Assembly (NCBI GenBank): GCA_003971905.1
Contig: RSEE01000045.1
Coordinates: 124,001 to 188,000, forward strand
Direction: 5' to 3'
Length of the DNA stretch: 64,000 nucleotides
Source of the DNA: Moniliella sp. 'wahieum'
Taxonomy: Eukaryota
Below the pieces are notes generated by a model. It saw nothing but the letters and a program-made list of their open reading frames with translations. It was not told the origin of the DNA and did not search any database. Shown here piece after piece: positions 1,342 through 63,261 of this stretch (positions within the stretch are counted from its first letter, which is position 1; every line of letters starts with the position of its first letter). A program made the translations under genes and the position numbers.

Positions 1342-2132
1342 CGTGGCGGGATGGGCGGGGAGGGGCAAGTGAGGCGGGGGTGGGGCGACGGGGAGGGAAT
1401 GGGATCGGCGAGGGCCGGAGTGCGGGCGAGGGCGTGGGATATATACGGGAGCGGGCGCGGGCAGAATGCACATTCGGCAGCCAAAGCACCGCCGGGGCGT
1501 CGTGCTGCGGGCTGCGCTGTGCTGCCTGCCGTGCCCTGCGTCGCCGCGGCCGCGCCATGGACCGCCCGGGGCGACCTGCGCGCGTCGGCGGCACAACACC
1601 TGCCCCCGTGCGGGCCCCGGCCAGGTCACGCGTCACGCGTCATGCAGGTGTGCCTCTGCGCTGCCACACCGCCGCCACAGCGCCCCGCCGCCGCCCCCCG
1701 CGCAGCCGCCGATTCGGTTGGGCAGCGGGCTGCCTCTATGCCGCCCGCCGACACCTGCCCGTGGCATGAAACCAACACGCAGCAGCTTCTACGTTCCATG
1801 CCTCTCACGCGTCACTTGCACGTCACACGCTGCTCTGCAACGCTGCCTCTGCGCTGCGCCTCCCCCGCCCGCGGGCATCCGCGGCCCGCCAATCCCGCGG
1901 CGCTGCGGATGCTTTGCTTGGCACTGCCCCACTGCCCCGCAGGTTTTTCTCGCTGGCTCACGCTCTCCCGCTGAGCAGCACCCATTCAGTTCATGCCTTC
2001 TTGCTCCCGCCGTACTCACTCAGTACTCAGGTACTCAGTAGCAGTGCTCTGTGTCCTCACCTCCTCGCGCGGCACGCGTCACGCCTTCCGCCTTCCGCCT
2101 CGGCCTCACCCGGCCTCATGCGCCTCACCAGC

Positions 2133-2167
2133 TCACTAGTCACTGGTCACTAGTCACTAGTCACTAG
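2133..2167. repeat. Heptamer array (TCACTAG)x5, one unit TCACTGG
   Basis: Direct reading. Confidence 0.95.
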
Positions 2168-2260
2168 CTAGTCTCTCCTCTCCGGGGCTCAGACGGAGGC
2201 CCCCCTTTTCACCCCGACTCACGCGTCAGACCCGCACGCGCCGCCTAATTTCAAACCTTA

Positions 2261-4787
2261 TGTTGACTGTGATCCTCTGGCTCCCAGTCGGTAGACCAGG
2301 TTCGCCTCGGTTCCATCGGCTTCCACGCTGACGTCCCTGCGTGTCACTGTCCCTGTGCCCTGCACTCTCTCCTGTGTGACTCACTGTCCCTGTGCCTAGT
2401 CCAGCCTCCTATATAGATGCCTCTGTACCCAGACCCAACTCTGGCTCCAATCCATCACTTCTCCTATCCTTCTGCCCGTCCGGCTCCCTAGGCCAACAGA
2501 GCTACAATCTGATCCCCCCGGAAGGGGAGCGCTCTTCAAGCAAGCCCACCCCCAAGCCTACAAGCCCAAGCTAAGCCGCCAAGCCCACAAGACACACCCG
2601 TCCTCCCGCCCAACAACACCACCGCCACAATCGGCACCTTACCGCCACAATCGGCATACTACCGCCACAATCGGCATACTACCGCCACAATCGGCACACT
2701 CGTCCCCCACAGATGGGGCAATGATTTTTAGGGACAACACACGACGGAACAAAACGTGTCGGGTATCGTCAACGAGACGAAATTCCTCCAACGACAAAAC
2801 GGCGCAGGCGAATCGCAGAAAGCGGGGGTGGCTGCTCATCAAGTGCCCCACCCACGGCTACACGCCCGGATTGCCAATTCATCCGGGGCACCTGGGGAAA
2901 GGATGGGGGGGGGTGGTCACCCAACTTCTTCCACTCCTCTTTTCAACAACAAAGAGAACCCAAACAGATCAAGACGGTTGACGCATAGCGCCCGTTCATT
3001 TCCCATGCCCAATGGACCCCACTGGCACCAGGCATGCGGAACCAAACAACTACCAAACGCATCCAATTTGATGCCAAACGACCTTGGACCGCATTTACTC
3101 CAAGTTTCCAATTTCTTCTTTCACTACACCTATAACTGGTGCTTTTACTTTTGCCCACCAAATCGCTTCGGGGCGCAACCCCTACTACTTTTACTTCTAA
3201 GACTTCTACAAGCATCTGGCGGTCGCACAATACACCAACCACAAGCGCTCGGCTCGTTCAGGTGTCATCCTGGACAGCGGGGGTGTAGGCCAGTCGTGTG
3301 GCCATGCACAACTCCAGGCCATTCGTCCCGGTTGCCACTCAAGTCCCCTCTCTACATCCACTGGCAGGAGCTCATCCCACAACCGATGTCTCCGGGTTCC
3401 CTGGCCAGCGGGGGTGTGACTGTGATCCTCTGGCTCCCAGTCGGTAGACCAGGTTCGCCTCGGTTCCATCGGCTTCCACGCTGACGTCCCTGCGTGTCAC
3501 TGTCCCTGTGCCCTGCACTCTCTCCTGTGTGACTCACTGTCCCTGTGCCTAGTCCAGCCTCCTATATAGATGCCTCTGTACCCAGACCAACTCTGCTCCA
3601 ATCCATCACCTTCTCCTCATCTTCTGCCCGTCCGGCTCCCTAGGCCACAGAGCTACAATCTGATCCCCCCGGAAGGGGAGCGCTCTTCAAGCAAGCCCAC
3701 CCCCAAGCCTACAAGCCCAAGCTAAGCCGCCAAGCCCACAAGAACACCCGTCCTCCCGCCCAACACACCACCGCCACAATCGGCACCTTACCGCCACAAT
3801 CGGCATACTACCGCCACAATCGGCATACCGCCACAATCGGCACATCCCCCACAGATGGGGCAATGATTTTTAGGGACAACACACGACGGAACAAAACGTG
3901 TCGGGTATCGCAACGAGACGAAATTCCTCCAACGACAAAACGGCGCAGGCGAATCGCAGAAAGGGGGGGGTGCTCAAGTGCCCCACCCACGGCTACACGC
4001 CCCGGATTGCCAATTCATCCGGGGACCTGGGGAAAGGATGGGGGGGGGGTGGTCACCCAATTCTTCCACTCCTCTTTCAACAACAAAGAGAACCCAAACA
4101 GATCAAGACGGTTGACGCATAGCGCCCGTTCATTTCCCATGCCCAATGGACCCCACTGGCACCAGGCATGCGGAACCAAACAACTACCAAACGCATCCAA
4201 TTTTGATGCCAAACGACCTTGGACCGCATTTACTCCAAGTTTCCAATTTCTTTCACTACACCTATAACTGGTGCTTTTACTTTTGCCCACCAAATCGCTT
4301 CGGGGCGCAACCCCTACTACTTTTACTTCTAAGACTTCTACAAGCATCTGGCGGTCGCACAATACACCAACCACAAGCGCTCGGCTCGTTCAGGTGTCAT
4401 CCTGGACAGCGGGGGTGTAGGCCAGTCGTGTGGCCATGCACAACTCCAGGCCATTCGTCCCGGTTGCCACTCAAGTCCTCCCTCTCTACATCCACTGGCA
4501 GGAGCTCATCCCACAACCGATGTCTCCGGGTTCCCTGGCCAGCGGGGTGTTGACTGTGATCCTCTGGCTCCCAGTCGGTAGACCAGGTTCGCCTCGGTTC
4601 CATCGGCTTCCACGCTGACGTCCCTGCGTGTCACTGTCCCTGTGCCCTGCACTCTCTCCTGTGTGACTCACTGTCCCTGTGCCTAGTCCAGCCTCCTATA
4701 TAGATGCCTCTGTACCCAGACCCAACTCTGGCTCCAATCCATCACCTTCTCCTCATCCTTCTGCCCGTCCGGCTCCCTAGGCCAACA
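2261..4787 (+). mobile_element. Non-autonomous LTR retrotransposon in tandem form (LTR-internal-LTR-internal-LTR), probably Ty3/gypsy-derived
   Basis: Three ~238-bp near-identical LTRs (2261-2498, 3415-3649, 4548-4787). Outer LTRs have TGTTG...CAACA termini; all have an internal TATATAG. Purine tract AGCGGGG(G) lies directly before LTR2 and LTR3. 5-bp TSD CCTTA at 2256-2260 and 4788-4792. Two ~900-bp internal copies with no pol. Confidence 0.9.
2621..2700 (+). repeat. 4 x 20-bp tandem repeat (ACCGCCACAATCGGCAYNYT) in the retroelement leader; degenerate second copy at ~3770-3843
   Basis: Read directly: accgccacaatcggcacctt, then ...catact twice, then ...cacact. Confidence 0.95.
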
Positions 4788-5850
4788 CCTTACACTTGTC
4801 GCCCTCCCGCTCGCCTATCCTGCCTCCTCGTGCCCCCCCCTACGGCCGGGGAGTAGGTTGCCGAGTGCGGTGTGGCAAGGTGTGGCAAAAGCTCCCAAGT
4901 TGCCCGTGGCCTGCCATACCGCTTGTCTCCGTCTTCACCTGTTCCCACCGGTTTTCCAGGTACTCTTCCGATGGTAGTATCACGGCAGTTGCAATCGCAA
5001 TCGACGCAATCCCCGCCGTTACGCATGGCCCTATCGGTCCACCATGAGCAGCGGGCGGTTTGGCTGCTCCATGGCACGGCAAGCCGCTCCTGAATCGGAC
5101 GAGGCAACGAGGAACAGCCTGGAGCAGCGAGAGGACTACGCAGGGCAAACCAAAACCGAACCAACGGAGGCTTTGGATGCTTCATCATGCACATCATGCA
5201 TCATGTTCTCCAAGCTTCACGAGTAGTGAGTCACTAGATTCACTCCCTTCGCCAACAGCAGGAAGAGTGCGTGGTGAGTAACTGAGTACTCAAATGAGTC
5301 GACTGAGTTCGATGACTCGATAAGGCCCAAGGCCGGGAGGGGAACGGGGAAGCGGTGGGAGTGTGACATGTGACGCCACACTGGTGTAGTGGCGCCGACA
5401 GCCCCAGCGGGAACCTTCTTCTTCCAGTTATTCCTTGCATTCCTCGCAGTATTCCTTCCTGGAGGGCAGAAATATTCTCTAGCCTCTGTAGCTCCTGCAT
5501 CACGTGCCATGCAATGCACCATCAACTGCCTGCTCCCTGGTCCTCTACAGGGAGCTGACGGTTACCTCTGCTTGCACCCTGAGGCCTGAGGACATCCTAC
5601 CCTGGCCGCGGGGTTAGGGGTTACCGGTTAGGCCTTAGGAAACCATGCAGGCGCTGTGCAAGCACACCTTATCACATGTTTACACCCCGAGGCCTGACAT
5701 CGTTACCTCGTTAGTTACCAAGTTACTGAGCGAGTTCCGGTTGCCCGTTGCCGGTTGCTGGTTACACGTTACGTGATACGGTTACAGGTTGCAGGGGCCT
5801 GTGAGGCAACCGGTGACAGTCCCCAGCCACTGGCTTCTACCTAGTTGCAG

Positions 5851-5896
5851 TCACTAGTCACTAGCTAGTCACTAGTCACTAGTCACTAGCTAGTCA
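5851..5896. repeat. Heptamer array (TCACTAG)n with two extra CTAG insertions
   Basis: tcactag tcactag ctag tcactag tcactag tcactag ctag tca. Confidence 0.95.
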
Positions 5897-5986
5897 AGTT
5901 AGTCAAACTAGAGCTTCAAGCTTTCAAGTTCCTACGTGGTTTGAAACCTCCGGAAGTTGCCGTTTAAATTTTAGCGTTATCCGGAA

Positions 5987-6015: not shown

Positions 6016-7602
6016 TGTGGGGAGGCGAGCAAGGCAAAGGGGAGATCGTGTGATGCAATCAGGGGAAGGCAGCCCGGAGGGCAACAGGGAAGAGCGGAAC
6101 AGGGGCGGAACGGGCCGCCTCGCACACGCCAATGGCACTGGCATTGGGGTTACCGGTTACCGGTTACATGCATCACATGATCGCCATAGGTTCACCTTTC
6201 ATCTCAACGTCAATAACCAAACGTTGGATTGGTCTGTCTGATGGAAGTCGGACCAGACAAAAACGCCTTGGCTATTGTTAAAAGCTCATCAACGAAATGG
6301 GGAAGGAAAGAGAACCAAAAGAAGGCACAGACCGTGCCTGCTCTTCGTCTCATCGTCTGTTGTTCTCACCACACCACAGCTCTACTGTGGTGCATCAGCC
6401 AGAAGGTTGGCCATCCATCACCGCCTAATACTGTACCAGGCACCAATCGACCTGCAACACACGATAAGTAACCCAGAGGGTGTCGGAAGAGCGAAGACGG
6501 TCCATACTCGGGAGTGGGGTCTGCTTCTGATGAGAGCCCGATCTCGCACCCCTCTTTGGTCACCCGGTCGGCATCCGCTCGAAGATCTGAGATTGGAGAT
6601 CCTTGGGGACGGACATATAAAAGGGATAGGAAAAACGAGGTGTTGAGAACCCAGAGTTACTATTACTAGCGACGGGTCACACGCACATATCCACCGGCTG
6701 CGCGTATGACCCTGTTCTAAAGATCTTCCTTGACCCTTTGTTGTCTCTTTCCCTTATCACCGTCGTTTACCGTGTGATTGCATCTCCTTTGCCTCTGGTA
6801 TATAAGGCACCATTCCATATGCACCCTGAATGAATACCATGTGGGCATCCAAGGCAATCCCCTCCTACACGGAGCTTATTCCCCACGAATTTCTCGCCGT
6901 GTGCACTCTGTAGGGACCACGGACAAAAACGGCGGGTGGGCGAGCCTGCCCGCCAGCCTGTATTAAGCACCCTTTGTCTCTCGCGTGCTATAGGTTGTAT
7001 CCACGCCGGTCTGAACGATCAACTATACTCGTGTAATACTCTGTTGCGTAATGATGCGTCGAGAACGAAGGACCGCACCGTCGATTATGTGTGGTGCACT
7101 ATCTAGGCGGGATCCCGTTCGTACGGCTGAGGGCATATCCGTGTGTTTTTGCTTTCTTTAAATCCTGCTTGTATCCTGCTTTGAATTGCTTTGAAGTCGG
7201 ACTTGTACCCAAAAAGATGTCTGGGTCGGAGATGAACTTCCTAACACACATGCATCTCATTTTCCCTGCGTGTTCTTTCATCGTGTGTATATTTATCGTT
7301 TCCTGCGTGGCTCAGAGCGGAGAGCGCCTGCAATTATTCTTTAGGCTTTCCTCTGGCTTTTCTGATTCCTGCGGTGGTGGCGTGTGGGGAACAGTTTCTT
7401 TTTTCCTCTTTTGGTGTTCGCTATTCCTTAATTGCTGAGGCCTGCGGACGTCGTTTGCCCTATTACCTCTTTTCTTGATGGGTTGTCTATTTTTGTTTTC
7501 TATCCTGCCCCTGCGTATGGTCCTTGTTACGGGACGCTCCGGTTACCTCCGGACGCTGAGTCCCGGATGTCGTAGACATCTCAGCCCAACACGCGTCAGT
7601 CC

Positions 7603-8372
7603 TGTTAGATCTTAGACTAGCAAGAGAGAGCCATCAGTACTCAGTCGACACCTTATCGATCTTATCCATGCTGCGGATATCATCGATCATCGATCATCCG
7701 CGACCCGCGAGGGTCGCATGGGCTCATCGGTACGATGCTTCGTGCCCATTGCAGCCAGTCTTCTTTTAGGTAGAACCCTTCCAGCTGCGCCCGACTACGA
7801 AGCGTCAGCGCCTTTGAGAGCATAGGCTGTACATTATAGCTTTTACCTCGCTGGAAAGTGCCCCGCATTCTGTTTATATACCTGTCACATGTCACGCGGC
7901 ACTTGGGGCCTGGTTCCTTCTGTGGTATTATAAAAGGAGCCATGTCTAAGGCTTGCTGTGGTCCTGGCCGACCATCCTGTCTTTGGTCTCCCCGACTACC
8001 CGTTCCTCTCTCGTCCTTCCACCTTCTACTACCCTTATACGCTTACGAATTTACGACTTACGTCGAGTACGCTGCAAGCTGTGATTACTCTCATCCGTAG
8101 CGCTTGCTCTTCTTTAGGACTCTGTCTGTTCCCGCCTACTACAGTGTCCCGAGTGTGGTAACGCTGCGAGGAACAGAGTAACTTCGGAGCTCCTGGACTC
8201 CTTCAACTGGTCTAACGATCTACGTACACGGATCCTACCTCGGAGGGTCTGAGCTGCGACCTTTGCACGCAGGCAGCCACCCAAACTAGAGGGTCTGCCA
8301 CCCAAACTAGAGGGTCTCTCCCTCGCCTCTACACCCTCTCAGTTCAACCAGGATTTGAACCAGAACCTAACA
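7603..8372 (+). mobile_element. Possible solo LTR relic
   Basis: Ends TGTTAGAT...ACCTAACA (7/8 inverted match), internal TATAAAAG at ~7928, and a 21-bp tandem duplication GCCACCCAAACTAGAGGGTCT at 8276-8317. No TSD and no second copy in the window. Confidence 0.4.
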
Positions 8373-10730
8373 TACGAGACACCGATTGGCCTGTCCACAA
8401 GGGTTTATGCGTTTACACCCCTAAACTACAGGGTGGGGGGGGGCACCTCGGGTCCCCCCCATGATGCATGATGCATGACAGTCCTCTTCTTGGCCCCAAC
8501 AGTGCACTTTCCTGCCGAGCGCGTCATTTCGTCGTCGACACTTGGGTAAAAGATGAGTGTCATTTCTTCGTCAGAAGCCATAGCCGTTTGAGACCCACAG
8601 GCACCGCCCCGTTCGACCCTTTATTCTGTATACCTTATCAGCTGTCCCAGACCACATATATGTTCCAGTAACGACACAGCTCTGTTGGTCTTCCGCAGTT
8701 TTCTCTGCTGTGGTCTCCACACCCCCATTGCCGTCAAAGTCCAGTATCTACGATCCTCTCGGTACGGATCCCTCTACCATAATGCATAATCCGAGCATGC
8801 AAGAAGAGTTGAATTGTTCCGATGTCTGCCAGGCCAATGTGACCCTCTCTTCTCGTTGCCTGCCTCACCTTCCACTGAAGTCAACCTTTATAGGGGATAC
8901 CGATATATATATACTTAATTACACACTAATAGCAATCGCCTTCTTGCTTGACCGGGCGCGTACTACAAAGCTACGTTTTGTCACGCCAAGCGGCGCCCCC
9001 GTCTCAAGTGGGCATATTCTCGCCTGCAGGTCTGTTCCGATCCGACAATCCCGTTCTGGCTCAATAACCCGCTTGAGTGGTCTTCCCTCATACTATTTGT
9101 GTGGTTGGGCCTCATCCGTGGGTCCGCCCATGACAGTGGGTGCTCAAGGTGAATGGATTTAGGCCAGCAATGTTTTTTGTGATGATCTGTGGTGGTCACA
9201 GATAGCGATACAATCTCAATCGTGAATCCATCTTGTTTCTTCTGCGGTATAGAGATCAGATCTCAGAGGTGACCGCCGGATGAAAAGAAGCATTTTGCGG
9301 GGATATGCGATGCTGTCTTATATATACCTTGAGACACAATCTCCGTCAGTTTTGTCACAGGCGCCAACATCGCTACGTCCCACTGATGCAAACGACTTTC
9401 CTTTCCTCTTTACCTCACTTCAAGGCCTCCAACAAAAGCCCAACTTTCGTCTCCTCGTATCCAATTTGTCTCTCCGTACTGTATCTTCATCCTATACCTT
9501 AACGGATTCTTCTTGTTTCCGTATCCTCTATCTTTCCGTCGTAGGGCGTATCGTTCGTAGTCTCCGCATGTAACACCGTGGGGGGGATGGGGGGGGTAGC
9601 TTTCCCGACTGGAGACCGTTTTTGCCCATAAGAGCGTGAGTATAATAATGGCTGTGGCCAATCCATAAGCGGGGATTATACAAGACCAGATATCAGGCAG
9701 TTGGTGGTGTATTGCATTAATTGCATACTACGTTATGAGCTACAGAGGCTGGAGAATATTTTTGCCCTACAGGATTGAATATTGGAAGGAATGAGCCGGA
9801 AGGTTTCGGGCTTGGGCTACCGATTCCACTACACCAGTGTGGCACCGTAGGGATGCGTACGTCGGGAGCAGCCCAAAAGCTACCGTGAAGTCACAGTGTT
9901 GAAGTGACTTTTGCCAACGAGTAGCACCACCGACTCTCTCGTGGGCAAAAAGGGCAAAGGGCGGCGGAATAAGTAAGGGCTTTGCCGGAGTAGAGGCGGC
10001 AGAGATTTGTAGGTAGAGGGCGAGGAATAAGCCTGGATCAAAATGAATCTGCTAGAAGAGAAGGTTTGCTCACGGGCCGATGATGGGAATGGTTCGGCTT
10101 TTGGCCATCTCATCAATAGAATCAACTAACAGACAGTATTCACAGTGTGAACAGGAGCGGGGGGATTGGTCACAAGCGGCGAGGAGACAAAGAGAAAATA
10201 GAAAATACATAGTCTGTACTACGCATTGTCTTCCTCCAGACATGCCTCGTCCCATCCTCTTCCTCTACAGTCGGCTCTCGTTGTGGATATAATATGGGTG
10301 TCGGGAATGGAGCGCACGTGGACTGCAGAATGGACTCCCGTACCGCTTCGTGCAATGCGCCAGAGCGGAACTTGGTGCGAGTGTGAGCCATCATGGGCCA
10401 AGCGAGGACATGACACCACACTTGCATCATCCCATGTAGTGTGTGGAACGGCACAAGGTTGTGCGGATGAGCAGTGGACCAATCTGAACTTGCTTTCATT
10501 GTCGGCGAGCCGAAGGCAAACAGCTGTGTGATATAGGATTGAGGAAAGCCAGGTGTGGTTGAGCGCATTGCTGTGCTCGACTACATTGCGACCGCTGGCA
10601 TCATTGATCGTCGTGAACAGTCCCTGCAGGCTAGTTTCTCTCTCTCCCCTATACTCCTATTTCCGTTTCGCTCGACCTCCGCCCTTTTTCTCTAAAACAA
10701 AGAAATAGAAAAGGTCGACCATCGCACACA

Positions 10731-12714
10731 ATGGCTTCAGCGGTTAATATTATTTGGGAGTTCCCGATGGAGAAGAAGTGGAAGGGGATTTGGGCTCTGC
10801 TCTGCGCGCGGGAGGATATGATGGCCACAGAGATTGGAGCTCCCTAGTATACAGCACCCGCCTCGTCCGATTTTCTCGAGGTGAGCCTCACCGGCTGAGG
10901 CAATTTCGGAAATGTTGCATCCGGCCCGGCCCACCGGTCGACTGAACATTGAAACATTCACGTTGAACAGTGGACGCCCGGTTGTCCCCATACTGCGACT
11001 ACACCTGAATGTGAAAGGCCCCACATCCACCCCCCCATCTCGCCGTCCCCGTCGCGCCTGGCCCCACCCCGCCATGCGCTCCTGGCGCAACCCCGAACGT
11101 CGCGACAGCGATGCATCCGTAGCGTCTCTCACCCCCTCTTCCACCACCGCCTCCACCACCGCTTCCACTGCCTCCCCTGCACTCTCCCGCAAACTCCTCG
11201 GTTCGCTCGCGGCCATTCGGGCGGCCCCTGAAGCTCTGCCTGCGGCCGCTCACAAGGATCCTCTGAGCCTCATCATCACCACCAAGAACTTCCGCGCGTT
11301 TGTTCAGAAAGCCGGGCCTCTCTTCTGGTTCCAAGACCACGTTGAGGCGACGCTGCTGTGGGATGACTGGGCTTGGACGCTGATGTGGATGGCGCTCTGG
11401 GCTGCCATCGCGCTCCGGCCCAGCCTGTTGCTTGCGGCGCCCCCCGCCGTCTTGACCATCATCCTCTACAAGACGCATCGCTCTCGCTTCCCCAACGCCT
11501 ACCCGCATACCGGCTCCTGGCATCTCTCGCCCCCGGCCAACGCACTGGCCTCGCTGCTTGCCCAGCCGACTCACATGGACGACCCTAACCCCCTGCCCCC
11601 GCTCACGCCCACCCCTGCCGCAGAGGGAAGCATGCAGTTCCTACAGAACTTACGTGACATTCAGAACATGTACATATGTCTCCTTTCTTTTTCTCTGCTC
11701 CCTTCCCTTGGTTGACTGATGTTTCCTTGCGCCCAGGATGAAGATGATTCCGGACGGATACGATGCCATTTCGCTTTTGGTGCCTTACTTAAATTGGTCG
11801 GACCCCACGACGTCCATGTTGCTACTGAGGGTCAGCATTGTGGGGACGGTAGTGATGCTGATTTTCGGCCACCTGGTTCCGATCCGGATGTTGCTCCTTG
11901 TGGGCGGGGAGGTGGCATTGGCGGCGAACCATCCTTGGGTCAAGCCGTTCGTGCACGGCCTCGCCCACCCTGACCAGGAAAAGGGAGAGACGGCTCTGAC
12001 GCCCGCTGCGGCGCGCAAGGCTCGTGCTGCCCACCAAGTGTTGCGACAAAAGCGTTCGGAAGCCGCGCACGTGGCCCGGACCTGGCTCGAGTTGGACCAG
12101 CTTCCGGACCAAGCTTGGTCCCATGGCTGGCGTGACGTGGAGATCTATGAAAACGAGCGGTTTGTTGCGCGCACCCCACGCAAGGGCGCCCAGCAGCCCG
12201 AAGAACGAGAATGGAGCGGCGAGTACCTGCTGAAGTCCGACCGGCGCGCCTGGACCCGCTCCCAAGACGGTTGGTCCCCGCCGGGCCTCGATACGGTGGC
12301 TCCGGGGTCGGAGAGTATCAGCGCCTGGCACCTCGCTGCTGCCCTCCCCCATGGCTGGGCCTGGCTCCCCGGCGAGGACTGGAGGGTGGATGAGGCAGGT
12401 ACCTGGTCCCCCGTCGGGGCGGACGAGCATGGCTGGTGTACACCGACCGCGACTGGCACTGGCCTGCACCATATGCGTATCGCCATACCGACCAGCCCAA
12501 CGAAGCATTGGACCCCTCCGAGGCTCAGGCAACCTTGGACCTTGTCCAGGCCCAGGACCCGTCATTGGGTTCCGACGACGCAGCTACGTCCCCCTCTGCC
12601 TGGGGTCAGTCTGCTTCGCGGGTCGATGGCTCGGACTTTCCGCTGGCGGCGTTGGACAAACATGGCGCACACTCACTCGCCGACGGCGCTGGCTGCGCCG
12701 TTGCGTGCGGGTAG
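10731..12714 (+). CDS. Pex24/Pex23-family integral peroxisomal membrane peroxin with C-terminal dysferlin-like domain (start uncertain)
   Basis: NFRAFVQKAGPLFWFQDHVEATLLWDD, hydrophobic helices, FLQNLRDIQNM, EIYENERF, GWAWLPGEDWRVD...DEHGW(V)YTD. Introns ~10881-10970 (GTGAGC..CAG) and 11670-11736 (GTACAT..CAG). Confidence 0.8.
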
Positions 12715-14056
12715 AGAACGAATGAGGCTCCTTCGTGAGTGCCGAGTATGGAGTCTCGGAACGGAGGTTTCGTCCCTTGTATGATGCATGACTTCACTGG
12801 TGTGGGCTCATGACACTGCCTTTCCTTTACTCATCCATATCATTGTGCCGATGCACCGGACGAGACAGTAGGGTAAAGATGTGTGCCTAGTAGTGCGTCA
12901 TCCTGTGCTGGCATGGTTGCCCTCAGTCAGTTATGCTATTGGTGGAACAGAAGGGCAGTAGTTGGGCTTGGAATGTGCCTAGCCACCCAGCCCGGGAGGG
13001 AGGATTGGTGAAACGGGGGTGTAGAATAGAGGCATGGAAGGCGAGGGCCACGTCGAAGAAGACCAAACTTGATCGGTAGGGCAAGTGGGACTAGAGCCGG
13101 AGCTACTCTCGCACATCATTCATTTCTTCCCATATGGGGTGCATGAGGCGACTGCAATGCAATACTTCCACTCGCATTTGGAGCGAGGGTGGGTGGACTG
13201 CAGTGGAGGTGGTGGACGCACTGTTTGGTCGGGATGGGGCGAGGAGAAGAAGGCACCAAACGTTGTCCCCGACCGCATGCCTTCCTATTGTCCCCACCTG
13301 TTCCATTTGGCTTTGGATATGGATTTCGTGCGACAGCCTTCTCATTCTTCTCCTTTGCGACCCACCGCACACATAGACCGACCATGCTCATCTACTTCCC
13401 CCCTTTTCTCGCGTTCTGGGCCTGCTAAGTATACTTTTCCCCCTCCGACCCAACTCGGTAAGGATCCTCCTTAGGTGCGGCCAGCAGTTCTCTCACCCTG
13501 GTTTCCAACCTAGCCCTCCTACCTCCTGATTCAATCCCTTTTGTGCGAATGATTGATCTGACGTCTTGCCGCTTTGTATTGCTAGCATCAATGGTGGAAT
13601 GGGATTGGAGCAGATGCGGATCGGCCATGCCATGTTCCTTGTATATGCGGGGAAAAACAGGGCTATTGGAGGCTGAAGCACGTCTCTCACCATGGGCATT
13701 CACCAACCCTTCTTTCGGCTCGGGTCTCCTGGCACTGGCTTCTCTCCCGTCCTTGTCGCGGTTCAGCCTCCCGCCTGAGCCCACCTGATGAGAGATGAGA
13801 GAGGGTCTGCGGTCCATCGAATGGGGGATGCAATCCAACTATAACTCGTGCCATTGGTCGTGATGGCGGTGGTGGCGACCCAGGAGCAGCTTGCAGCAGC
13901 AGCATCCGGCCAGACACCGCCACGCCAGACGGGAGCAGGGCTACGAAAGGACGAAGAAAAGAAGGGGGAACAAGGTCCGAGCAATAGGGGGGGGGGGGGG
14001 CAGAGCGACGGGACCCCAGAGCGAGACGGGGCAGGGACCTAGCTAGTACTTAAAGC

Positions 14057-14512
14057 TTAATGCAAGGCGCCATAGTCCTGCGCCGTCTCGACATGCTGGC
14101 CCATAAAGGTATTGCCTTGGTTGTCGTGGCCGGCGGGAGCCTTGGGATCGGTGGATGCCATGGGCGCGGTAGTAGCTGGCACCACCACCACAGAAGACGG
14201 GGGATCGGAACATACAATGACCATCGCATGGATCATCGCAAAGACCACAACAGAATCTGTGCTCCAACCAAGCATTGCGCGCGCGGGGGTACAAAAAGGG
14301 GGGGTAAACATGGGATCAGTTCAACCAGCGCCGTCTTCGGTGTACGAGGGGAGGGGGGAAGAGGCGACGAACAAAGAGCACGAGGTTGATCCAAAAGTCG
14401 CGACCGCAGCCGCGGGCCAGACCGACAGCCAAGGGCGGCAAGAAGAAGGCCAGCACGCCGAGCAGGCAGCGTGAGTTACCGGTCGATACGACCATCGGCG
14501 TTGGGACGTCAT
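14057..14512 (-). CDS. Pmp3/UPF0057-family small membrane proteolipid
   Basis: LLGVLAFFLPPLAVGLARGCGRDFWINLVL, then a probable intron, then ...MIHAMVIVC...; two-helix Pmp3 pattern. Start approximate. Confidence 0.75.
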
Positions 14513-38700: not shown

Positions 38701-39009
38701 TGTACCCAGACGGACTTTGGTCCGACGAGCTTGGGCTTGGGCTCCTTGCTGGGTTTCTTGGCGGATGCATTGGCCGGCGTGGGCTGGGCGGCGGCTGCCT
38801 TGGCGGCCTTTTTGGCAGCGAGCTGCTCGGCCTTGGCCGCCTTCTTGGCACCCTTTTTGGAGAGGGGGCAGCGGGAGCGGGGTCCGGAGGAGGGGGCGGT
38901 CGTGCTCAGGAGGGGGGGGGCCGGGGGGGTGGCGACGGCGAGGGGGCGGGGCAGGGGGGGGCAGGAGGCGGGGGGGCAGGAGACGCGGCAGGGGACGAGG
39001 CAGCCGCAT
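35702..39009 (-). CDS. VAS1: Valyl-tRNA synthetase
   Basis: [15 protein letters not shown] (HIGH motif), [85 protein letters not shown]-terminal coiled coil. Arg/Leu/Pro-rich presequence-like start at 39009. Confidence 0.97.
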
Positions 39010-49653: not shown

Positions 49654-50100
49654 GAGGAGGGTAGGGGTGGTGGCAGGTGCACAGACGGTGGGTCCTCAGC
49701 CGAGGGAAGGAGGTGCGGCTGGTGGCAAAAAAACCCCGGGGGTGGTGCGAGTGCTGAGAGGGAGTATATAATTGGGGCGCAGCACATGCAGCCCAGAGGG
49801 GCAGTGGGCCACCGCCTGCCCCAGCCACCCGACGCACTTGGTCGGGTGGCCCTCCGCTGGCGGGGCTAGGGTTGCGTGCACGTCCCCTTGGCCGGGAGCA
49901 TGGTGGTAGCGCCTAGTCTAGCTGGCTGGTCGGTAGGCTGTGGTTCTGTTGGTTTCAAAAAAGGAGGCCATCGCCAATCTCGTGACCAATGACCGGTGAC
50001 CATGACCGATGACTGCATCGACCAACGGGGTTAATGAGGATGACCATCCCTAGCTACGGAGCGTCGCCCCTCCTTTTCTCCGCTCCTCCCCCCTCTGCCC

Positions 50101-50896: not shown

Positions 50897-51705
50897 TAAA
50901 GACGGTGATGCGGTGCTTTCATGTGGCTCCTTCGTATGATGTCAGATCCTGGCCTAGCAGCTGAGGAGTAGAGCTATTATCCAGGGTGGATGCTGCGCTT
51001 CGCATGTATGTGGTTTGCATGGCCCTCTGCTATCCCATTCCGTTGTAGGTTAATAAGAGCAGATGCAAGCAAGGGTGTATCGAGATCCGTTTTGGTAGGA
51101 TCCACTACGTGAGCCATGCGACCCACACTGAACATGACCGGGGCCCAAAGCGGAGGCACTGGTAGGAGGCGAGGATACAAACAAATGTAAGGGAAGTCTG
51201 ACGATGGTTAGGATGCCGATCTAGCCGTCCTGGTGCCAGGCAATCTGGTCCGCAACCCCTTCGGACTCCTCGACCAGTAACTGATTAGGTCGATTGCGGT
51301 TGGACGGCACCCTTCTCTGGCACTTGCCCACTTTGCCTCTCCCGCGTCATCTTGCGCTATCCCCCCCAATGTTGACCCGCTGCGGCTTGCAGCTGTGAGG
51401 TTGCCCGTATGGAGCCTGGAGACTTGTGTTGGGCAGGGTTGCGTACTGGCGCTGATGGCCGAGGAGGCTCACTTGTGTGGGAGTACGTAGCGTGTTCAAA
51501 CCCAACGTACCCAGCGTTGGAGCTGAAGTTGAACGTTCAGACTGGCCATTTGCGTTTATTCAGGCGCCCATTCAAGCTCCGCCCGCTTTCACGCAGCCCT
51601 TTTTTCATGTATCGCTCCATCCATCAGCTCGCGCGCGGGGCACACACTCTCCACTGCGGCGCACACACTCTCGACTTGCCCCCCTCCCACCAACACCTCC
51701 CCAGC

Positions 51706-54669
51706 ATGTCCAGCACGGACTTTTTCACCCCTCTCTCAATCCCATCGCCGCCTCCACCACACCGCCTCCACCGCCACCTCCTATCCCGACTCGTCCACCA
51801 CCACCTCCGACTCGCTCTTGCGCGCTGACCCTCCCGAAGATGAGAGTGTGCCTGCGGCAGCCAACGCAGTCGTCGTAAGGGATGCAGGTGAAGCTGAAAC
51901 TGCAAATGAGAATACGGTTGCGCTGGCTCCGCGCCAAGGATGGACCATCGAGCGCGCGCATGGGTGGGCCGACAAGGCGTCCAAAGGCCTGACCGCCGCT
52001 ACACTTACCCACCAAGCTGGGTTTATCGCTGCCAAGGCCGGGACGAGACTGGGCTGGGCATTGCGCGCTTTGCGACCAAGGCGTCGCTTACGCTGCCTGC
52101 CATGGCTGTTGATGCGGCCATGGGGACCGTTCCTGCCAATCCTTGGTCCAGCGATCCCTCCAGTCGTGGGCGGGTCTCCGTGTCGGGCGCTGCAGGGGCC
52201 AGTGTCGACGCTCTGTTCAACTTTGTGGATGCCATTACCCATGGCTCGATTGGCCTGGGGAAAGCGTGTCCGATATGGGTCTGGCGGCGACCCAACGCGG
52301 TGTGGAACAGATCAAAACCGCCTTGTCGAGCGATGTGGTGCGCTCCCTAGTCACCTTTACGCGATTGCTCAAGTGGGTACCCCCTCGCACCGCCCTGCCG
52401 CTTGTTCCCATACTCACTCTCTCCCCTACCTTGCAGATCCGAATGGAACGACACGACCGATGAGCGTCTCCCTCCTGGTGGGCTTCCCGCGTTTGACAAT
52501 GTGACCATTGCGCGGGCGCTGCTCTGTTGGATCTCTATCCAGACCGTCAACCGACCGCAAGTGGAACGTGACATTCTAGCCGAAATGACGTTGGTGCGGC
52601 AAAGCGATTTTAGCCGCTCCTCCAGCTCTAAGTCAGCGAGGAGGTGGAAACCGACATATCGGAACACGACGTGCGGGCTCTCAGTGCGGCGCACCGGGTC
52701 CAGCGGCTGGTCACGCATGCGCGCCTCATGTTAGCAGTGTACGGAGGCGCATTTATGCTCCTTCTCGACCAACATCCCGATGGGATCCGTACCCTTCCCG
52801 AACAAACCAACGAGGCCGTGTTGTTTGTTCGAGACTGCCTTACCCGTGGAAATGCAGTGTTGGGCCGGACCTACGAATTGCCACGGTTGCCCGCCGCTGC
52901 AGCCGAGGGAGAAAGCTACTACACTGACGATCCCCACCGCGACTTTTCTCACCCTTCTTCCTGGAATATGGACGGCATCCCGTACGCGCAACTCCTCCGT
53001 GGCGATTTGGACGACAGTCTGCTGCATGTAGCGGCGGGCGTGGAGGCGTCAAATGCGTACGAGGGTCGTACGATACCTTGGACAACCCCATGGTGGAAAT
53101 TGCTCCGGAAGACTTGGACCAAGAAGCTGAGCTGGATGCAACGATGGGCGCCGATGGTGTGCCGACGACAACCAGTCGTCCACGGTACTATGTTATCACC
53201 AGCGACCATAGCCGCAAGATCACCCTTGTTCTTCGTGGCACCGTCACCGCGGGCGACGTGGCGACCGACTTGACCTGTTGTGCGGTACCGGCCTCCCGCT
53301 TGGGCTCTCACCTCCCGCCCAACTCGAAAGCGCACGAGGGCGTGCTCAATACAACTTTGGCGCGTCTGCCCGGACGGCCATTGCATGCAGCGGTGTGGAA
53401 ACAGCTCCAAGCCCATCCCGACTACGACATTGAGTTGGTGGGTCACTCGCTCGGGGCAGCGGTGGTGGCGGCCCTGAGTGTTCTCTGGGGAGATCCAAGC
53501 ACGGGCAAGACGCTGCTCTCGATCGAGCGGGCAGGGCGGCACGTGGTTGCTCCCATTCCCGGCGCAACCGAGGTGGCGATCCGTACGCGCTCGATCCATG
53601 CGTTCGCCTACGCTTGCCCACCTACTTTTGATTCCGTCTTGGCCGAGTACTGCAAACCGATTGTTACGGCGTTTGTGTGCAACCACGACCTTGTGCCGCG
53701 CCTGAGCCACGAATCGGTTCTGAGCATTCGCAACGCCATTGCCTGGATCAGTTATTGGGACACGGAGGCTAACCGCCCGGCCCAACCGACATCTGTCCCT
53801 CTCACCCCGGAACCCATCGTCACTGAGCCCGACGATGCCCAGTCGTTCGATGGTTCCATTGCATCGACAGTCTCCCCTCGGTGGATAGCAAGACGGAGGA
53901 TGCTCCCACCTCGACGAGCGGAGCGACCCTGCGCTTGCCACCTGCCCCGTGGCCAACTTTAGCACCCTGACCCTCCTGCGCCAAACGTTGGAGCACCAAA
54001 GCGGCCGTCTTGGTGGCCCCCTTACCAAGGCACGAGTGGAATTTGAAAAGTCAACACGCGCCCTCTACAATGCGCTGCGCACCAAGGCCCCCGTTCCTCA
54101 ACTCGTCATTCCCGGCCGCGTGTTTGCCGCGTACGATCGAAACGCGCTGCTTATCCCGCCCGACAGCTTTGCTGCCTCGCCCGCCGAAACCGTGCCGGCC
54201 ACATCCGCCACCTCGGCCGCGTCCGCCACCCCGCCCCCTTCGGTGCAGGCTCGCATCTACGAAGTGACAGGCAATCGTTCCAACGCGTTTGGTCAAATCC
54301 TCTTTGGCTCGGGCATGCTCGAAGCCCACTTTCCTCGGGTGTATGCACGTGTGCTGACGCAGCTGTTGGACGTGACGCGTCCTGCTTCCCCTCCCCTTCC
54401 GCCTCCGCTTCCGCCTCAGCTTCGGCTGCGGCTCTTCATCCCCCTCCTTGGACCCTGCCCACGCCACGACGACACCGGCCTCTGCCGCTGCTACAGCGCC
54501 AGAGCCCGACCTCTCCTCGGCCCTGGAAACCGCGACGGCACTGGCTGCTGCCGGTGCCGCCCAGGCCGATTTGGAAAGGGAACGGGAACGGGACGCGAGT
54601 CCCGAGGACCAGTTCCATGATGCTGTGGCCGTGCTGGATTCCGAGGTGACGGTAAGCGGACTGGCGTGA
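51706..54669 (+). CDS. Class-3 lipase (diacylglycerol-lipase-like alpha/beta hydrolase)
   Basis: YYVITSDHSRKITLVLRGT..DVATDL, AHEGV, LVGHSLGAAV (GxSxG), FVCNHDLVPRLS, MLEAHFP. Intron ~52377-52436. Confidence 0.85.
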
Positions 54670-55715
54670 AGAGTGAAGGTTCAAGGTTTATGTTCATGGT
54701 TGAACCAACGTTGAACGGTTTGATTGTCCTTTGAAGTTGAAGCTTGGCTAGGGGCTTGGCTCCCATTTTGCTTGTTTGTTGTTGTTTGTTTTATTGGGGA
54801 CAGAATCGCACGCCATTGCCCTGTTCCCCATGCTGCTCTGCTGGTTTGATACCTCCCTTTTTTGATCCAATACCTCACCCTCTTTTTGTGACGTGTGACG
54901 ATGGAAATGATGTGCATGATGCACTGGCTGGCGACGACCTGTTGGCTCGAGTCTGATCCTTATAAGACTCCATAGGGTACAGGGTACAGAAGAAAGCTGG
55001 GACAAAAACAGAAGTACACTTTGCGCGCGTTCAACAGAAAGGTGAGACGTACGGGGCAAGGCCACTCATATAATCGTCGCAGTCTTGGCCTGGGGAGAGG
55101 CTGGACGGCGTTGTGGAGGTTGTCGCTGCTCAGGTTGGCCTCGGCATAGTGCTTGAGCACACAGAGGCTGTTTTATTGAGCGGCGGCGCCAGCACGTGGC
55201 TCGTCTTTTTCTGTGGGAGGGGGGGAAAGCACTTCTGCTTGGCGTTGGCGGCGAGGTTGGGCTTGAGATCGAAGGTCTGGTTGCGCTGGATGACAACCAA
55301 ATAAGCCACGATGATGGGGATGGTGATGGGCATGGTTAGAATGGGGCGCTCAATGAACGTATTCTCAAGAGGGATATTCGGACGCGATCGACTTGCACAG
55401 CCCGAAGATCTCAAGACCAGCAACACAACCAACACCTGGTCCTGAAATGTTCAACGGTGCGTTGCTATAACTCCCCTGTGGCAACCAGCAACCACGCAAC
55501 CCCCCCTAGAGACACCCCTTCACTCCATGCTGGCATCTACGGCTGTCTAACCTTCGTCCCATAGTCCTACCTTTGCCTGGTCTACAGCAAAAGTCGATGT
55601 CGAGGCAGAGAAGAACGGGCGTGATTGGGGGGTGGCGTAAGATGCAAGTGCGAATGAAAGGTCGTAAGACAGGGACTGGTCCAAACAAAAACACCAACCA
55701 GGAGGCGCAGGCAAG

Positions 55716-60233: not shown

Positions 60234-60680
60234 ACCTGGACATGGACCTGGACATGGACCTGGACGTGCGAAGCAAGCTGCGCTCCCTTCCTGTTCCATC
60301 GAAATTGAACTGCTTCATTGCTCCCCTCCATCTCATTGCAGCGCAGCAATGTAAGGTAGTAGGGGGGATGAGTGGGGATGAGTGTGATAAAAAAAAGTGG
60401 GAAAGAGGGAAGGGGGGGGAGAGGGGTAGATGGTAGAAGCAGAAAAAAAGAATGGACGGGTAGATGAGAAGTTCAAGCAGGGGTATCACGGTGCCCATGC
60501 ACCAAGACATCCTCTGGCGACAGGGGTTGCACACTGGGCAGTTGATCCAACTGGGGCGGGTGCTGGTGCCGTGCCTGTGCTTGTGCCGGCACGGCGCCCA
60601 CTAAAGCCAAGGCCAGCAGACCCACCTTGCACCCGTCGTCCCCTCGGCTTGCCCGACGGCACAACAACGAGCCAGCCAAG

Positions 60681-62226
60681 TCAGACCCCGTCGTACCAAA
60701 GTCCACCAGCCCCCAAATTCCAAGTCCCGGCATCAACGACCGAGGGCAGCGACCTGGTCGCCCCGCACTCCTCGTGCTTTCGCCCGACGATGTCATTCTC
60801 CGTTGCCCCCCTGGCGGCACGGGACTGCCCCCATCAAGTGGCTCAATCGGTATGGTATCTTCCTCCTTCACCTGACCCGAGAAGGGAGCCGCGGGCTCGA
60901 CCACCTGAGCAGGCGGCGGAGGTTGAGGTTGCTCCGTAGCACCCGTGGAAGCCGCTGCTTTGTCCTCGGGAGAAGGCGAGTCGTGGACCGATGGGGTACG
61001 TGTCGCCTCGGCCCCCACCGACACGCCCGCCTCCGTCTCCTGTTCCTCTGTTTTCGAAGGTGAGTCAGGCAGGGAAGCGGATGGCCCCGAGGCGTTGGAA
61101 GCGGGGGCGGTAGCTGGCTTCAAGCTGGCTGGCACCAAGGACGCCCGAGGTTGTGGGACGCGGGGAGGGGTAGGGTGGTAGTTGGCATCGGGCCGGATGG
61201 GGTGCAGGTGGATCAGGGGTGGTGGCAGGTGTGGATGCCGGGATGGAAGGCGAGGAAGCCAACGGCGCGCGAGACAACGCGAGCGACGACCTTCCATGCC
61301 ACGCTTTGCCCGGGTGCAACACCGAGTACAAGTGGTGGAGCGCCTTCGGGCGTAGGGATCGGCCGCCGTCGCCGTCGCCGTCGCCGTCGTCGACGACGCT
61401 GAGGTGGGCGACGGTCGGGAACGATGACGCAGTTGGTCAACCAGCCCATCGAAGAGATTGCAGACGGTGCCAGAACACGCACCGAGCCAAGGACAGGTGG
61501 TGGTGAGGCCTGAGCCTGAGGAAAGGTTGGCTGTTAACATGTCAACCACGCCTCGGACTGAGCACGCACATCTACTGACTAACTCCATTGCAACTCTCCC
61601 CACCCGAGTAACCCTGTAACACAGTCCTGACGCGCCTGACGTGACGGCTGACGCTCCGGCCTACGCTGAGTGCTCACGCTGAGGCTGAGCCAAGCAAGCG
61701 TGCGCGATTGGCCAATGGGGGGCAGAAGGGGGGCAGATCCGAGCAAATCCCACAGCACGCTCCGCACAGCCCACCTCTGTCGGCCCCACGAGAGGCCCCA
61801 GACCAGGGCCCCCAAGTGGAGCTGTTGCGGTGGGTCCAGCATGGGGTCCGTGGAGTGGCCCAACCCTACTGCCCGTGTCACGTCGTTGTGACAGTACCCA
61901 GGCCCAAGAAGAGGAGGCCTTGAAGCTTGAGCTTCTTAGCGCCCCTGCAACACCTGGTCATATGTAGCGTAACCGGTAAGGTCTAAGGTGGCTTGTTTCG
62001 GCAAGCGCGGGTGTGGCCTGTGTGCATGTGGGCGCTGGGGTGGGAGGCATTGGATTGATATGGATATGTGACGGGGTACTGCTCGCGATCCTGACGGCTC
62101 CGCAGGCCACACCACCAGTAATATACTGATGCTGCTGGCGCTGTTGATGATCAGCCCAGTGGTTTGTGTTGGAGGGGGGATGGGCAGCGGGAACTGACCT
62201 GAGGCAACTGTGGTAAATGAGTCCAT
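60681..62226 (-). CDS. Uncharacterised multi-exon gene
   Basis: Two canonical minus-strand introns (~62141-62198 GTCAGT..GCTGAT..CAG; ~61531-61583 GTTAGT..TTGAC..CAG) and protein-like fragments (KALHHLYSVLHPGKAWHG; ENDIVGRKHEECGATRSLPSVVDAGTWNLGAGGLWYDGV*). Family not recognised. Confidence 0.45.
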
Positions 62227-63261
62227 GGGGTGAATGATTCACGCGCCACGGTGTACCTGGCATTGGGACGGTTGTGTGGGCCGGATGATCGATTGTCTCG
62301 ATCATCTGTCAGCAGAAGCCGATGCACTATGGCTCGCGCCTCCTTCTCCTTGCGGCGGATATAGTGGAGAGCCCAAAATGGTTGAACGAAATGCTGGTGG
62401 GGTTGTTGGATGGCTAGCCACTGGTCACTCCAGAGCGACAAGCAGACGACAGGCCTCTCCCATCTTCCCCTTCGAAGTTGAGGCGTTCGAGTGCGAGTAG
62501 GTGCCGGGGGCCGGTCCGTACTGAGTGTGGTCTGATTTCTGTCTGATTCGGCTGGCATGCTGACATGCATTTGACAGTCACTAGTCAGGTGACAGGCGGT
62601 GACATGTGACACACGTGTGGCACATGTGATATCAAGTAAGTAGCCACTAGTAGTAACCGGCTACCGTAACCATCAACATTAGCGTCCCGTGTGGCAATAC
62701 GTGGCCGGTATAACCGGTAGCCATTAAACGTTACGCGCTAACCCAGCAGCCCCGAGCAGCTCCAATCGCTTGTTCCCCGCTTCTTCCGAAGTTCACATCG
62801 TTCAGAGGAGACGGCAGCGACGGAGCTCAATGTGGCCACACTGGTTCTTTGTTTGGTGTCCCTCGGTTGGACCGGGCAAGCGGAGTTGGGCATGGCGGCC
62901 CCCTGGCACATGAATCATTTCGAAACAGGCCTGGTTGCCCCGCCTACCAACGGAAACAGATGAGGGCTAGAGATAACTCGAACCCTCCGCCCTGTCCCGG
63001 ATAAGGACCGAGGGCATGCTTGCCCCCATCGTTTCGCTCGACAGCGTGTGGCAGGGTGTGGCCTGAGCGAGGGCCCGGGCAGGGAAGAGGAGGGGCGAGG
63101 CTCGGTCCCGAGGAGCAGCCAACGGAGCAAGCAAATCGCCGGGCGGAATGGATGGTTCCGCCGCCTTCAACGTTCAATGTTCAACGTTCAACCCATCCGG
63201 CCGGCCTTTTGTTCCAACCGAATTGTTCTGTTTCCCAACGACCCAGTCGCTTGCCCCCACC

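Follow-up and report, generated by a model that had tools for sequence, protein, structure and literature searches.

In CAG/CTG triplet repeats the looped-out strand can self-pair with regular mismatches, and this is thought to stabilise slipped intermediates. Heptameric repeats are over-represented in many bacterial genomes, and slippage linked to the stretch of DNA that the polymerase active site holds has been suggested as the cause (PMC4692102, where a 2007 survey and the heptanucleotides of Calothrix are cited). Among transposons, Sleeping Beauty leaves a canonical footprint of TA, three terminal bases (CAG/CTG) and TA (PMC6943129), and Harbinger elements duplicate TAA/TTA (PMC4423477). 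Palindromic repeat elements are known from fungal and algal mitochondria (PMC7218506). We describe a 10-base motif, TNA-N4-TNA with a self-complementary four-base filler, and the period-7 arrays that continue it, in a stretch of 64,000 nucleotides from the fungus Moniliella sp. 'wahieum' (assembly GCA_003971905.1, contig RSEE01000045.1, positions 124,001 to 188,000 of the forward strand), hereafter the window.

The motif resembles each of these systems in part. With the bacterial and cyanobacterial heptamers it shares the period of seven, an intergenic position, many units per genome and the lack of a known function (PMC4692102, accessible sections), and T-N-A is also common there, being present in 68% of 430 units in the metagenome contigs that we sampled (among the matches listed). 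However, those repeats are prokaryotic and form long arrays, with odd-length palindromes making up 16% of units in the sampled contigs (among the matches listed), whereas the window is fungal nuclear DNA with genes for eukaryotic proteins such as Pex24-like, PP4R3 and transportin, and its tracts are short, mostly of 1.4 to about 5 units and, in compound tracts, of no more than 48 bases. Like a transposon footprint, the motif is a fixed-length direct repeat round a few two-fold-symmetric bases, with a T-A-rich trinucleotide as target and a non-coding location; unlike one, it comes with 13 fillers that are related to their flanks and without length heterogeneity, and the window yielded neither an element nor, in the 150 of 177 ORFs scanned, a transposase. 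CAG/CTG repeats differ in having a unit of 3 rather than 7, while the arrays of the window are very short and their many unit sequences share symmetry alone. The mitochondrial elements are likewise palindrome-based, non-coding and linked to indels, but they are organellar, form much longer hairpins, are proposed to be mobile and, in the accessible sections of PMC7218506, are presented without a period-7 TNA pattern.

All results come from this one 64-kb window, and all statistics were computed on 52,330 bases, with 25290-35588 and 3417-4787 excluded as extra duplicate copies. Dinucleotide-preserving shuffles served as controls (50 for period-7 arrays, 100 for TNA-N4-TNA counts). Spans of open reading frames (ORFs) with Pfam support, 33.4% of the de-duplicated bases, stood in for coding DNA because gene calling based on third-position G+C (GC3) did not discriminate; the resulting gene map is partial.

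The initial annotation had reported, by eye, period-7 arrays of TNA plus four usually self-complementary bases, and the pattern proved to be real. Perfect period-7 arrays of at least two copies numbered 31 against 3.0 in the shuffles, and those of at least two copies plus three bases numbered 12 against 0.08, with 2 observed at period 8 and 0 at period 9. Identical 5-mers recurred at lag 7 in 338 cases (66 when shuffled), compared with 164, 182 and 155 at lags 5, 8 and 10, so that lag 7 is the sole standout apart from multiples of 3, which reflect coding DNA. Among 32 trinucleotide pairs, recurrence at lag 7 was strongest for TCA/TGA (76 versus 23) and TAA/TTA (20 versus 2), both of which stayed at baseline at other lags. 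Chains of at least three TNA at period 7 numbered 19 against 3.2; the remaining periods within 4-11 gave 2-7 against about 3.

TNA-N4-TNA as a whole occurs 131 times (82.9 in shuffles). With a filler that is a reverse-complement palindrome it occurs 63 times against 4.95 (maximum 10 in 100 shuffles), and with any other filler 68 times against about 78. The excess thus sits wholly in self-complementary fillers, and the earlier 'usually' was an understatement. It is also confined to a spacer of four, as neither spacers of 0-3 and 5-12 nor palindromic fillers of 2 or 6 bases between TNA were enriched over shuffles. Of the control classes, mirror fillers (xyyx) occurred 2 times, direct ones (xyxy) 8 times and complement-direct ones 15 times; the last two classes consist mostly of fillers, such as CGCG, CCGG and GGCC, that are reverse-complement palindromes as well. 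Over the 34,862 bases outside Pfam-supported ORF spans, Markov simulations of order 3, 4 and 5 yielded 0.6, 1.6 and 3.1 occurrences where 54 were observed.

The flanking word is restricted as well. When all trinucleotides were allowed on the two sides of a palindromic tetramer, TCA/TGA gave 44 against 1.3 and TAA/TTA 12 against 0.17, and no other word pair exceeded 8. AxxxxT hexamers carrying T.N and N.A flanks on both sides numbered 63 against 5.0, those flanked on one side 53 against 40, and those flanked on neither 74 against 83.5; palindromy is bound to the TNA repeat and not spread generally. Within the period-7 arrays, 14 of 31 contain a 6-base palindrome in the unit (11% expected), 13 of these being of the form A....T. 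Palindromic units were not enriched at periods 4, 5, 6, 8 and 9, and a general scan for a direct repeat plus palindrome at other sizes returned no further clean class.

The smallest common state of the repeat is the 10-mer TNA-(y'x'xy)-TNA, about 1.4 units, and longer chains have the form (TNA-filler)n-TNA, both starting and finishing with TNA. The two TNA carry the same N in 56 of 63 cases (about 1.5 expected from shuffles) and a complementary N in just 5; the pair is therefore repeated directly, even if T-N-A is compatible with dyad symmetry as well. As filler, 13 of the 16 palindromic tetramers are in use, where at least 11 had been claimed, each at 1-9 loci; all-A/T fillers are nearly missing, with a single occurrence of AATT. 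Perfect 10-mers reach 35 times expectation (56 versus about 1.6), and variants that break exactly one of the seven constraints only 1.6-2.8 times: the 10-mer core is a discrete motif. Under neutrality, these ratios would correspond to a divergence of roughly 6% per site, by our own estimate.

After de-duplication 53 chains remain, 44 with two TNA, 8 with three and 1 with four, besides compound and imperfect arrays of up to five or six units (2133-2167, 5849-5896, 24870-24910). Head-to-tail copies are found in the 31 perfect period-7 arrays of at least 14 bases; the label of microsatellite is limited by the 44 of 53 chains that are single 10-mers with just 3-5 bases repeated. In these 44 the direct repeat comprises the 3-base TNA, or TNA plus exactly 2 bases. 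The period-7 match extends to the left by 0 bases in 19, 1 in 6 and 2 in 18, and to the right by 0 in 19, 1 in 9 and 2 in 13; it almost never extends by 3-5, and the two sides are independent. The 2 bases outside an isolated 10-mer mirror the filler on the left in 18/44 and on the right in 16/44, about 40% per side against about 6% by chance. Given that the filler is palindromic, this two-base extension makes TNA the centre of a 7-base odd palindrome, xy-TNA-y'x'. A TNA with a partner 7 bases away is such a centre in 72 of 233 cases (31%, versus 6.6% in shuffles), an isolated non-coding TNA in 104 of 1026 (10.1% versus 6.6%, standard deviation 0.7) and a TNA within ORF spans in 21 of 474.

Clustering within 30 bases reduces the occurrences to 47 loci, only 2 of which lie inside Pfam-supported ORF spans, in agreement with the avoidance of coding exons noted earlier. 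Neither overlaps the domain that was matched: one is close to the upstream end of its span, the other toward the C-terminal end. A single stretch without a Pfam-supported gene, 1.6-9.3 kb, holds 19 of the 47 loci, and further clusters lie at 14.0-16.1, 23.4-25.2 and 61.5-63.2 kb. The claim that most intergenic regions carry the arrays is borne out by our own reading, on an incomplete gene map, in which one or more perfect motifs are present in 9 of the 13 intervals that separate Pfam-supported genes; several short intervals separating conserved genes are empty.

The individual motifs and arrays, including those with non-palindromic fillers, are as follows (window positions).

1626-1642: TCA-CGCG, three TNA
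1805-1814: 10-mer TCA-CGCG-TCA
2012-2040: imperfect GTAC/TCA array, exact 10-mer at 2020-2029
2133-2167: TCA-CTAG array, five TNA, one unit CTGG
2219-2228: 10-mer TCA-CGCG-TCA
5192-5205: CATCATG twice (TCA-TGCA)
5283-5292: TGA-GTAC-TCA, perfect 10-base palindrome
5364-5373: 10-mer TGA-CATG-TGA
5578-5591: CCTGAGG twice (TGA-GGCC)
5610-5637: mixed chain, GGGG-TTA twice, CCGG-TTA, GGCC-TTA
5849-5896: compound TCA-CTAG arrays with two extra CTAG
5964-5973: 10-mer TTA-AATT-TTA
6148-6167: TTA-CCGG, three TNA
7605-7614: 10-mer TTA-GATC-TTA
7634-7643: 10-mer TCA-GTAC-TCA
7679-7698: TCA-TCGA, three TNA
7885-7894: 10-mer TCA-CATG-TCA
8460-8478: TGA-TGCA, three TNA
8780-8789: 10-mer TAA-TGCA-TAA
9256-9265: 10-mer TCA-GATC-TCA
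12782-12791: 10-mer TGA-TGCA-TGA, first TGA being the stop codon of the Pex24-like ORF 11738-12784
14051-14060: 10-mer TAA-AGCT-TAA
14940-14949: TTA-TCGA-TGA, N differ
15329-15338: 10-mer TCA-GGCC-TCA
15370-15379: 10-mer TCA-TGCA-TCA
15523-15532: 10-mer TGA-TGCA-TGA
15568-15577: 10-mer TCA-AGCT-TCA
16064-16095: TCA-AACG array, non-palindromic filler
16110-16119: 10-mer TGA-AGCT-TGA
20076-20085: 10-mer TCA-TCGA-TCA, within the stop-to-stop span of the PXB ORF
21323-21332: 10-mer TCA-CGCG-TCA, paralogous copies at 26481 and 31637
23450-23459: 10-mer TCA-TCGA-TCA, copies at 28606 and 33746
23750-23772: TCA-GTAC-TGA and TGA-GGCC-TGA, copies at 28899-28921 and 34046-34068
23983-24002: TGA-TGCA-TGA-TGGA-TGA, copies at 29133 and 34278
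24746-24755: TCA-GCGC-TGA, perfect palindrome, copies at 29896 and 35044
24841-24860: TGA-CATG array, copies at 29991-30010 and 35139-35158
24870-24910: TGA-CCGA array, near-palindromic filler, copies at 30020-30060 and 35168-35208
25210-25219: TAA-GCGC-TTA, perfect palindrome, copies at 30361 and 35508
40593-40613: TGA-CTAG-TGA-CGAG-TGA
45013-45022: 10-mer TCA-TGCA-TCA
45425-45448: TTA-CCGG, four TNA, exactly 24 bases
47742-47767: TGA-GGCA, then TGA-TGCA twice, four TNA
49983-49999: TGA-CCAA-TGA-CCGG-TGA
51530-51539: TGA-ACGT-TCA, perfect palindrome
54667-54690: chain of TGA-AGAG, TGA-AGGT, TCA-AGGT and TTA, non-palindromic fillers
61504-61513: 10-mer TGA-GGCC-TGA
61535-61544: TAA-CATG-TCA, N differ
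61921-61930: 10-mer TGA-AGCT-TGA
61970-61979: 10-mer TAA-CCGG-TAA
62578-62587: 10-mer TCA-CTAG-TCA
62600-62609: 10-mer TGA-CATG-TGA
63167-63192: chain of TCA-ACGT, TCA-ATGT, TCA-ACGT and TCA

The exact sites listed in the initial annotation carry the fillers assigned to them, with two amendments: at 5912 AGCT-TCA-AGCT is followed by a TCA displaced by one base, and the site listed at 51531 begins one base earlier, at 51530. The near-palindromic arrays that it placed at about 16070, about 24879 and 54674 are present. Two unrelated loci, 1634-1647 and 21323-21336, have the 14-mer TCA-CGCG-TCA-TGCA in common. At 5610-5637 two telomere-like GGGGTTA units continue into CCGG-TTA and GGCC-TTA. From one filler to the next a dinucleotide is exchanged for its reverse complement (CC for GG), which resembles an inverted-copy step caught midway, or is chance. 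A second local period-7 tract, GTTAC/GTTGC plus two variable bases, lies at 5700-5800. The segment 5975-6015 resembles the 3' half of a tRNA (T-arm GGTTCGAATCC, acceptor, CCA); the ARAGORN tRNA scan and the Rfam scan returned no match, either to this segment or elsewhere in the window.

The window has a G+C content of 60%. Its genes encode a Pex24-like peroxin, a PX-domain protein, a zinc alcohol dehydrogenase, a leucyl-tRNA synthetase, PP4R3, an aspartyl protease, a class 3 lipase, a transportin and an HlyIII-like protein. The leucyl-tRNA synthetase gene (36434-38905) runs through three overlapping frames, indicating introns or frameshifts. No named protein exceeds 55% identity to the transportin ORF; the top match is from Tilletiaria anomala (55%), and the closest sequences are from Tilletiaria, Thecaphora, Malassezia and Violaceomyces. 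This places the source among basidiomycetes, in or close to Ustilaginomycotina, with no near relative among the sequenced species compared.

Two duplicated units account for the excluded bases. A 5.15-kb unit that carries the zinc alcohol dehydrogenase gene is present in three tandem copies (20142-35588), with the 404-residue dehydrogenase ORF (21940-23154) intact in copy 1 only. Over 100 indels, most of them of a single base, and 108 mismatch columns separate the copies, which are either decaying paralogues or the product of uncorrected long-read assembly errors. The second unit, of 1153 bases, occurs in 2.2 copies (2264-4787), contains 18-base and 20-base minisatellites, and has no ORF with a Pfam family.

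The anatomy of the loci and the folds predicted for them lead us to a tentative explanation, to which we give something short of an even chance: that the loci form a neutral, self-propagating family of quasi-palindromic heptamer microsatellites, made by hairpin-assisted slippage together with a short inverted-copy step. The repeat unit would be the 7-base odd palindrome centred on T-N-A. First, a short inverted copy, by fold-back or template switch, would make the two bases on each side of TNA complementary. Slippage during replication or repair could then add or remove whole 7-base units, and recurrent gain and loss of this kind would keep the copies uniform and most loci in the minimal state. 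Slippage by seven would be favoured because the looped-out strand of a three-TNA chain could fold into a 5-base-pair stem with a T-N-A triloop. Predicted DNA folds of palindromic arrays with at least three TNA are mostly of this type, a stem of A + filler paired with filler + T and the middle TNA as triloop; three of the arrays take a larger loop instead. Predicted energies range from -2.4 to -5.0 kcal/mol for 18-26-mers, with -3.8 for the 35-mer and -10.7 for the 48-mer at 5849-5896, compared with about -0.2 to -2.4 for shuffles. Apart from the TNA repeat itself, every regularity is a matter of symmetry and any palindrome serves, which points to structure or strand copying and not to sequence recognition. 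The direct orientation of the repeat, the steep fall in chain sizes (44, 8, 1) and the uniformity of the copies also speak for microsatellites, as do the odd-palindromic heptamer arrays with the same N in unrelated metagenome contigs, described below, and the bacterial heptamer excess with its proposed slippage origin (PMC4692102).

Several observations weigh against this explanation. Isolated 10-mers, with 3 or 5 bases repeated, are beyond the reach of slippage, so that the inverted-copy step is an assumption, and a single 10-mer is unable to fold alone. Hairpin-assisted slippage should help at periods 4, 5, 6, 8 and 9 too, where palindromic units are not enriched. The model gives no reason for a step of seven bases and leaves the restriction to T-N-A unexplained, other flanking words being near baseline. 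In addition, the three 5.1-kb paralogous copies show no 7-base step among their more than 100 small indels, and all 8 motifs and arrays are the same in all three. Across the copies, 1 of 157 motif or array columns is variable, compared with 1.5% local divergence, a figure that is uninformative on constraint.

The initial annotation had argued that ordinary slippage is insufficient, and the isolated 10-mers that repeat only TNA or TNA plus 2 bases, together with the enrichment of palindromic units at period 7 only, uphold this. The fold-back or hairpin writing that it offered in place of slippage fits the palindromy tied to the repeat, the mirrored flanks and the raised frequency of odd palindromes at isolated TNA, although the mechanism is unproven.

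Related arrays exist elsewhere. Three units of TCACTAG were found at a minimum of 123 metagenome loci, on contigs of 34-69% G+C that are mostly heptamer-rich and have variants such as TCACCAG as neighbouring units. Among the matches listed, the heptamer-rich contigs carry units such as ACCAGTC, AATCCCT and AACCCTG, and we take most of them, judging by the appearance of their arrays, to be of a bacterial or cyanobacterial kind. Over 545 kb of the matches listed, period-7 arrays number 405, against 2-59 at other periods from 4 to 10 and 0 at period 11. Unit counts in these contigs are biased because the contigs were chosen for holding the TCACTAG query.

Three records, L004/L005, L034 and L017, come closer to the window (counts are again among the matches listed). 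In L004 (1-12107) and L005 a 6-base palindrome plus one base makes up 19/27 and 17/21 units, respectively. L034 (1-8664) packs 58 arrays into 8.7 kb; of its 55 non-query units 26 are palindrome plus one, with palindromes that include CCTAGG, TCTAGA, ACTAGT, CATATG, ACATGT and GCTAGC. In L017 (1-12021), 7 of 26 units are palindrome plus one and a CCCTAAA array is present; the only named relatives of its 1214-residue ORF are Symbiodinium kawagutii gene models, and the contig thus resembles a Symbiodiniaceae dinoflagellate. Five long ORFs of L004 and L017 had no Pfam family. Like the window, these contigs have a palindrome-plus-one unit, a recurring central base, many palindromes per contig and a strong lag-7 peak. 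They differ in that the centre goes beyond T-N-A and the arrays are denser, with the counts of TNA and CTAG biased by the query selection. Their flanking word is T-N-A, A-N-T, C-N-G or G-N-C, tracts end at any phase, and same versus complementary N numbered 57 versus 7 and 53 versus 2. The palindrome-plus-one heptamer is therefore not confined to this fungus. Compared with these contigs, the restriction to T-N-A and the plentiful isolated 10-mers are.

A different origin, possible though in our judgement unlikely, is a new DNA-writing activity that would act at T-N-A, duplicate the trinucleotide and insert a self-complementary tetramer partly copied from the two neighbouring bases through a hairpin or fold-back. 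Thousands of 10-mers per genome would then seed 7-base repeats, with a broader, any-centre version of the activity in Symbiodiniaceae.

It is similarly doubtful, though conceivable, that the 10-mers are scars of an enzyme cutting at T-N-A with a 3-base stagger, such as a cut-and-paste transposase that duplicates TNA/TWA or a domesticated relative. Fill-in would duplicate TNA and leave four self-complementary bases, and repeat visits or later slippage would build the arrays. The build is indeed footprint-like, with a fixed-length TNA direct repeat (same N in 56/63), a spacer of exactly 4, a filler self-complementary as if from inverted ends, arrays bounded by TNA at both ends, a highly specific flanking word and loci that are non-coding and clustered; the footprints and duplications of Sleeping Beauty (PMC6943129) and Harbinger (PMC4423477) provide known models. 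On the other hand, the 13 fillers, none of them dominant, would require many element families, and the relation of the filler to the flanking bases is unexpected for foreign element ends. Real footprints, moreover, are heterogeneous, being perfect in 8 of 94 cases in rice (PMC4423477, accessible sections). No transposase domain was detected in the 150 ORFs scanned of 177 window ORFs of at least 130 residues (24 in duplicate copies and 3 others were omitted), and inverted-repeat elements flanked by TNA numbered 4 against 1.5 in shuffles (maximum 5), which is no excess and lends miniature elements of this type no support as the source. One candidate element of 694 bases, at 24038-24737 and in the two paralogous copies, has 10-base terminal inverted repeats (GCCGCTGAGC) with TGA on both sides. 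It is the only case of its kind, in a class not above chance; it starts with GC, and the GCGC filler that this predicts is seen only with complementary N.

Selection on functional cis-elements, with a protein as reader or an effect on chromatin in promoters, untranslated regions or terminators and with arrays as multimerised sites, is improbable. Perfect copies do stand at 35 times expectation when one-off variants stand at about 2 times; the array at 47742-47767 lies about 130 bases from a TB2/DP1-like ORF, the motif at 49990 is 54 bases before a racemase ORF span, and 9 of 13 intergenic gaps hold a motif in our reading. However, no defined recognition sequence emerges, the fixed bases being T.A....T.A alone, and a symmetric dimer would prefer complementary N, seen in 5 of 63. 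On the partial gene map, 19 of 47 loci crowd into one gene-poor stretch of about 8 kb while several intergenic gaps are empty, the orientation toward neighbouring genes is inconsistent in our reading, and the sameness of the paralogous copies, as said, carries no information. The protein or chromatin reader proposed in the initial annotation thus finds no positive support, given 13 fillers, an N that is the same and not complementary, and loci massed in gene-poor gaps.

Still less probable is that the process behind the bacterial heptamer excess, a polymerase-dependent slip of 7 bases, also operates here, with palindromy and TNA secondary, for example through seed survival. Period 7 does stand out alone among lags that are not multiples of three, the contigs that resemble prokaryotic DNA and are rich in heptamers carry TCACTAG, with TNA in 68% of their other units (among the matches listed), and both the bacterial excess and the polymerase idea have been reported (PMC4692102, accessible sections). 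Odd palindromes, however, make up 70 of 430 other units there (16%, among the matches listed) against 14 of 31 (45%) in the window, the contig arrays are longer, the excess in the window lies wholly in palindromic fillers, and most loci have no true tandem duplication.

Ruled out, finally, are chance or composition (shuffles and Markov models of order 3-5 never exceed 10, where 54-63 were observed), a general excess of palindromes (those of length 4 to 12 occur at 0.85-1.25 times the shuffles), a plain 7-base tandem or target duplication at most loci (5 of 44 isolated 10-mers extend by at least 2 bases on both sides) and, by reasoning, P-nucleotides from TNA itself (the expected T-N'-N'-A fillers are absent among the fillers seen).

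The window thus holds an abundant, non-coding and apparently undescribed 10-mer with strict rules that seeds 7-base arrays; we found no description of the pattern for fungal or dinoflagellate nuclear DNA in the literature searched, which excluded most subscription journals, nor any mention there of the TCACGAT-type arrays of smut fungi that the initial annotation brought up. If the window is typical, a genome of about 20 Mb would hold on the order of ten to twenty thousand 10-mers, which would place them among its commonest non-coding features. Because the rules are strict (a direct TNA repeat, exactly four bases, any palindrome), the origin is testable, the candidates being structure-driven mutation, an enzyme scar and a reader protein. 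In practice the loci could help to tell strains apart, and searches for motifs or promoters in genomes of this kind will be confused by them. The old and unexplained bacterial excess of 7-base repeats also gains a link to eukaryotes, with the dinoflagellate-like contigs as a second system for comparison. Should the DNA-writing explanation be true, palindrome-plus-one heptamers would be a general and overlooked class of eukaryotic repeats with a defined enzymatic origin.

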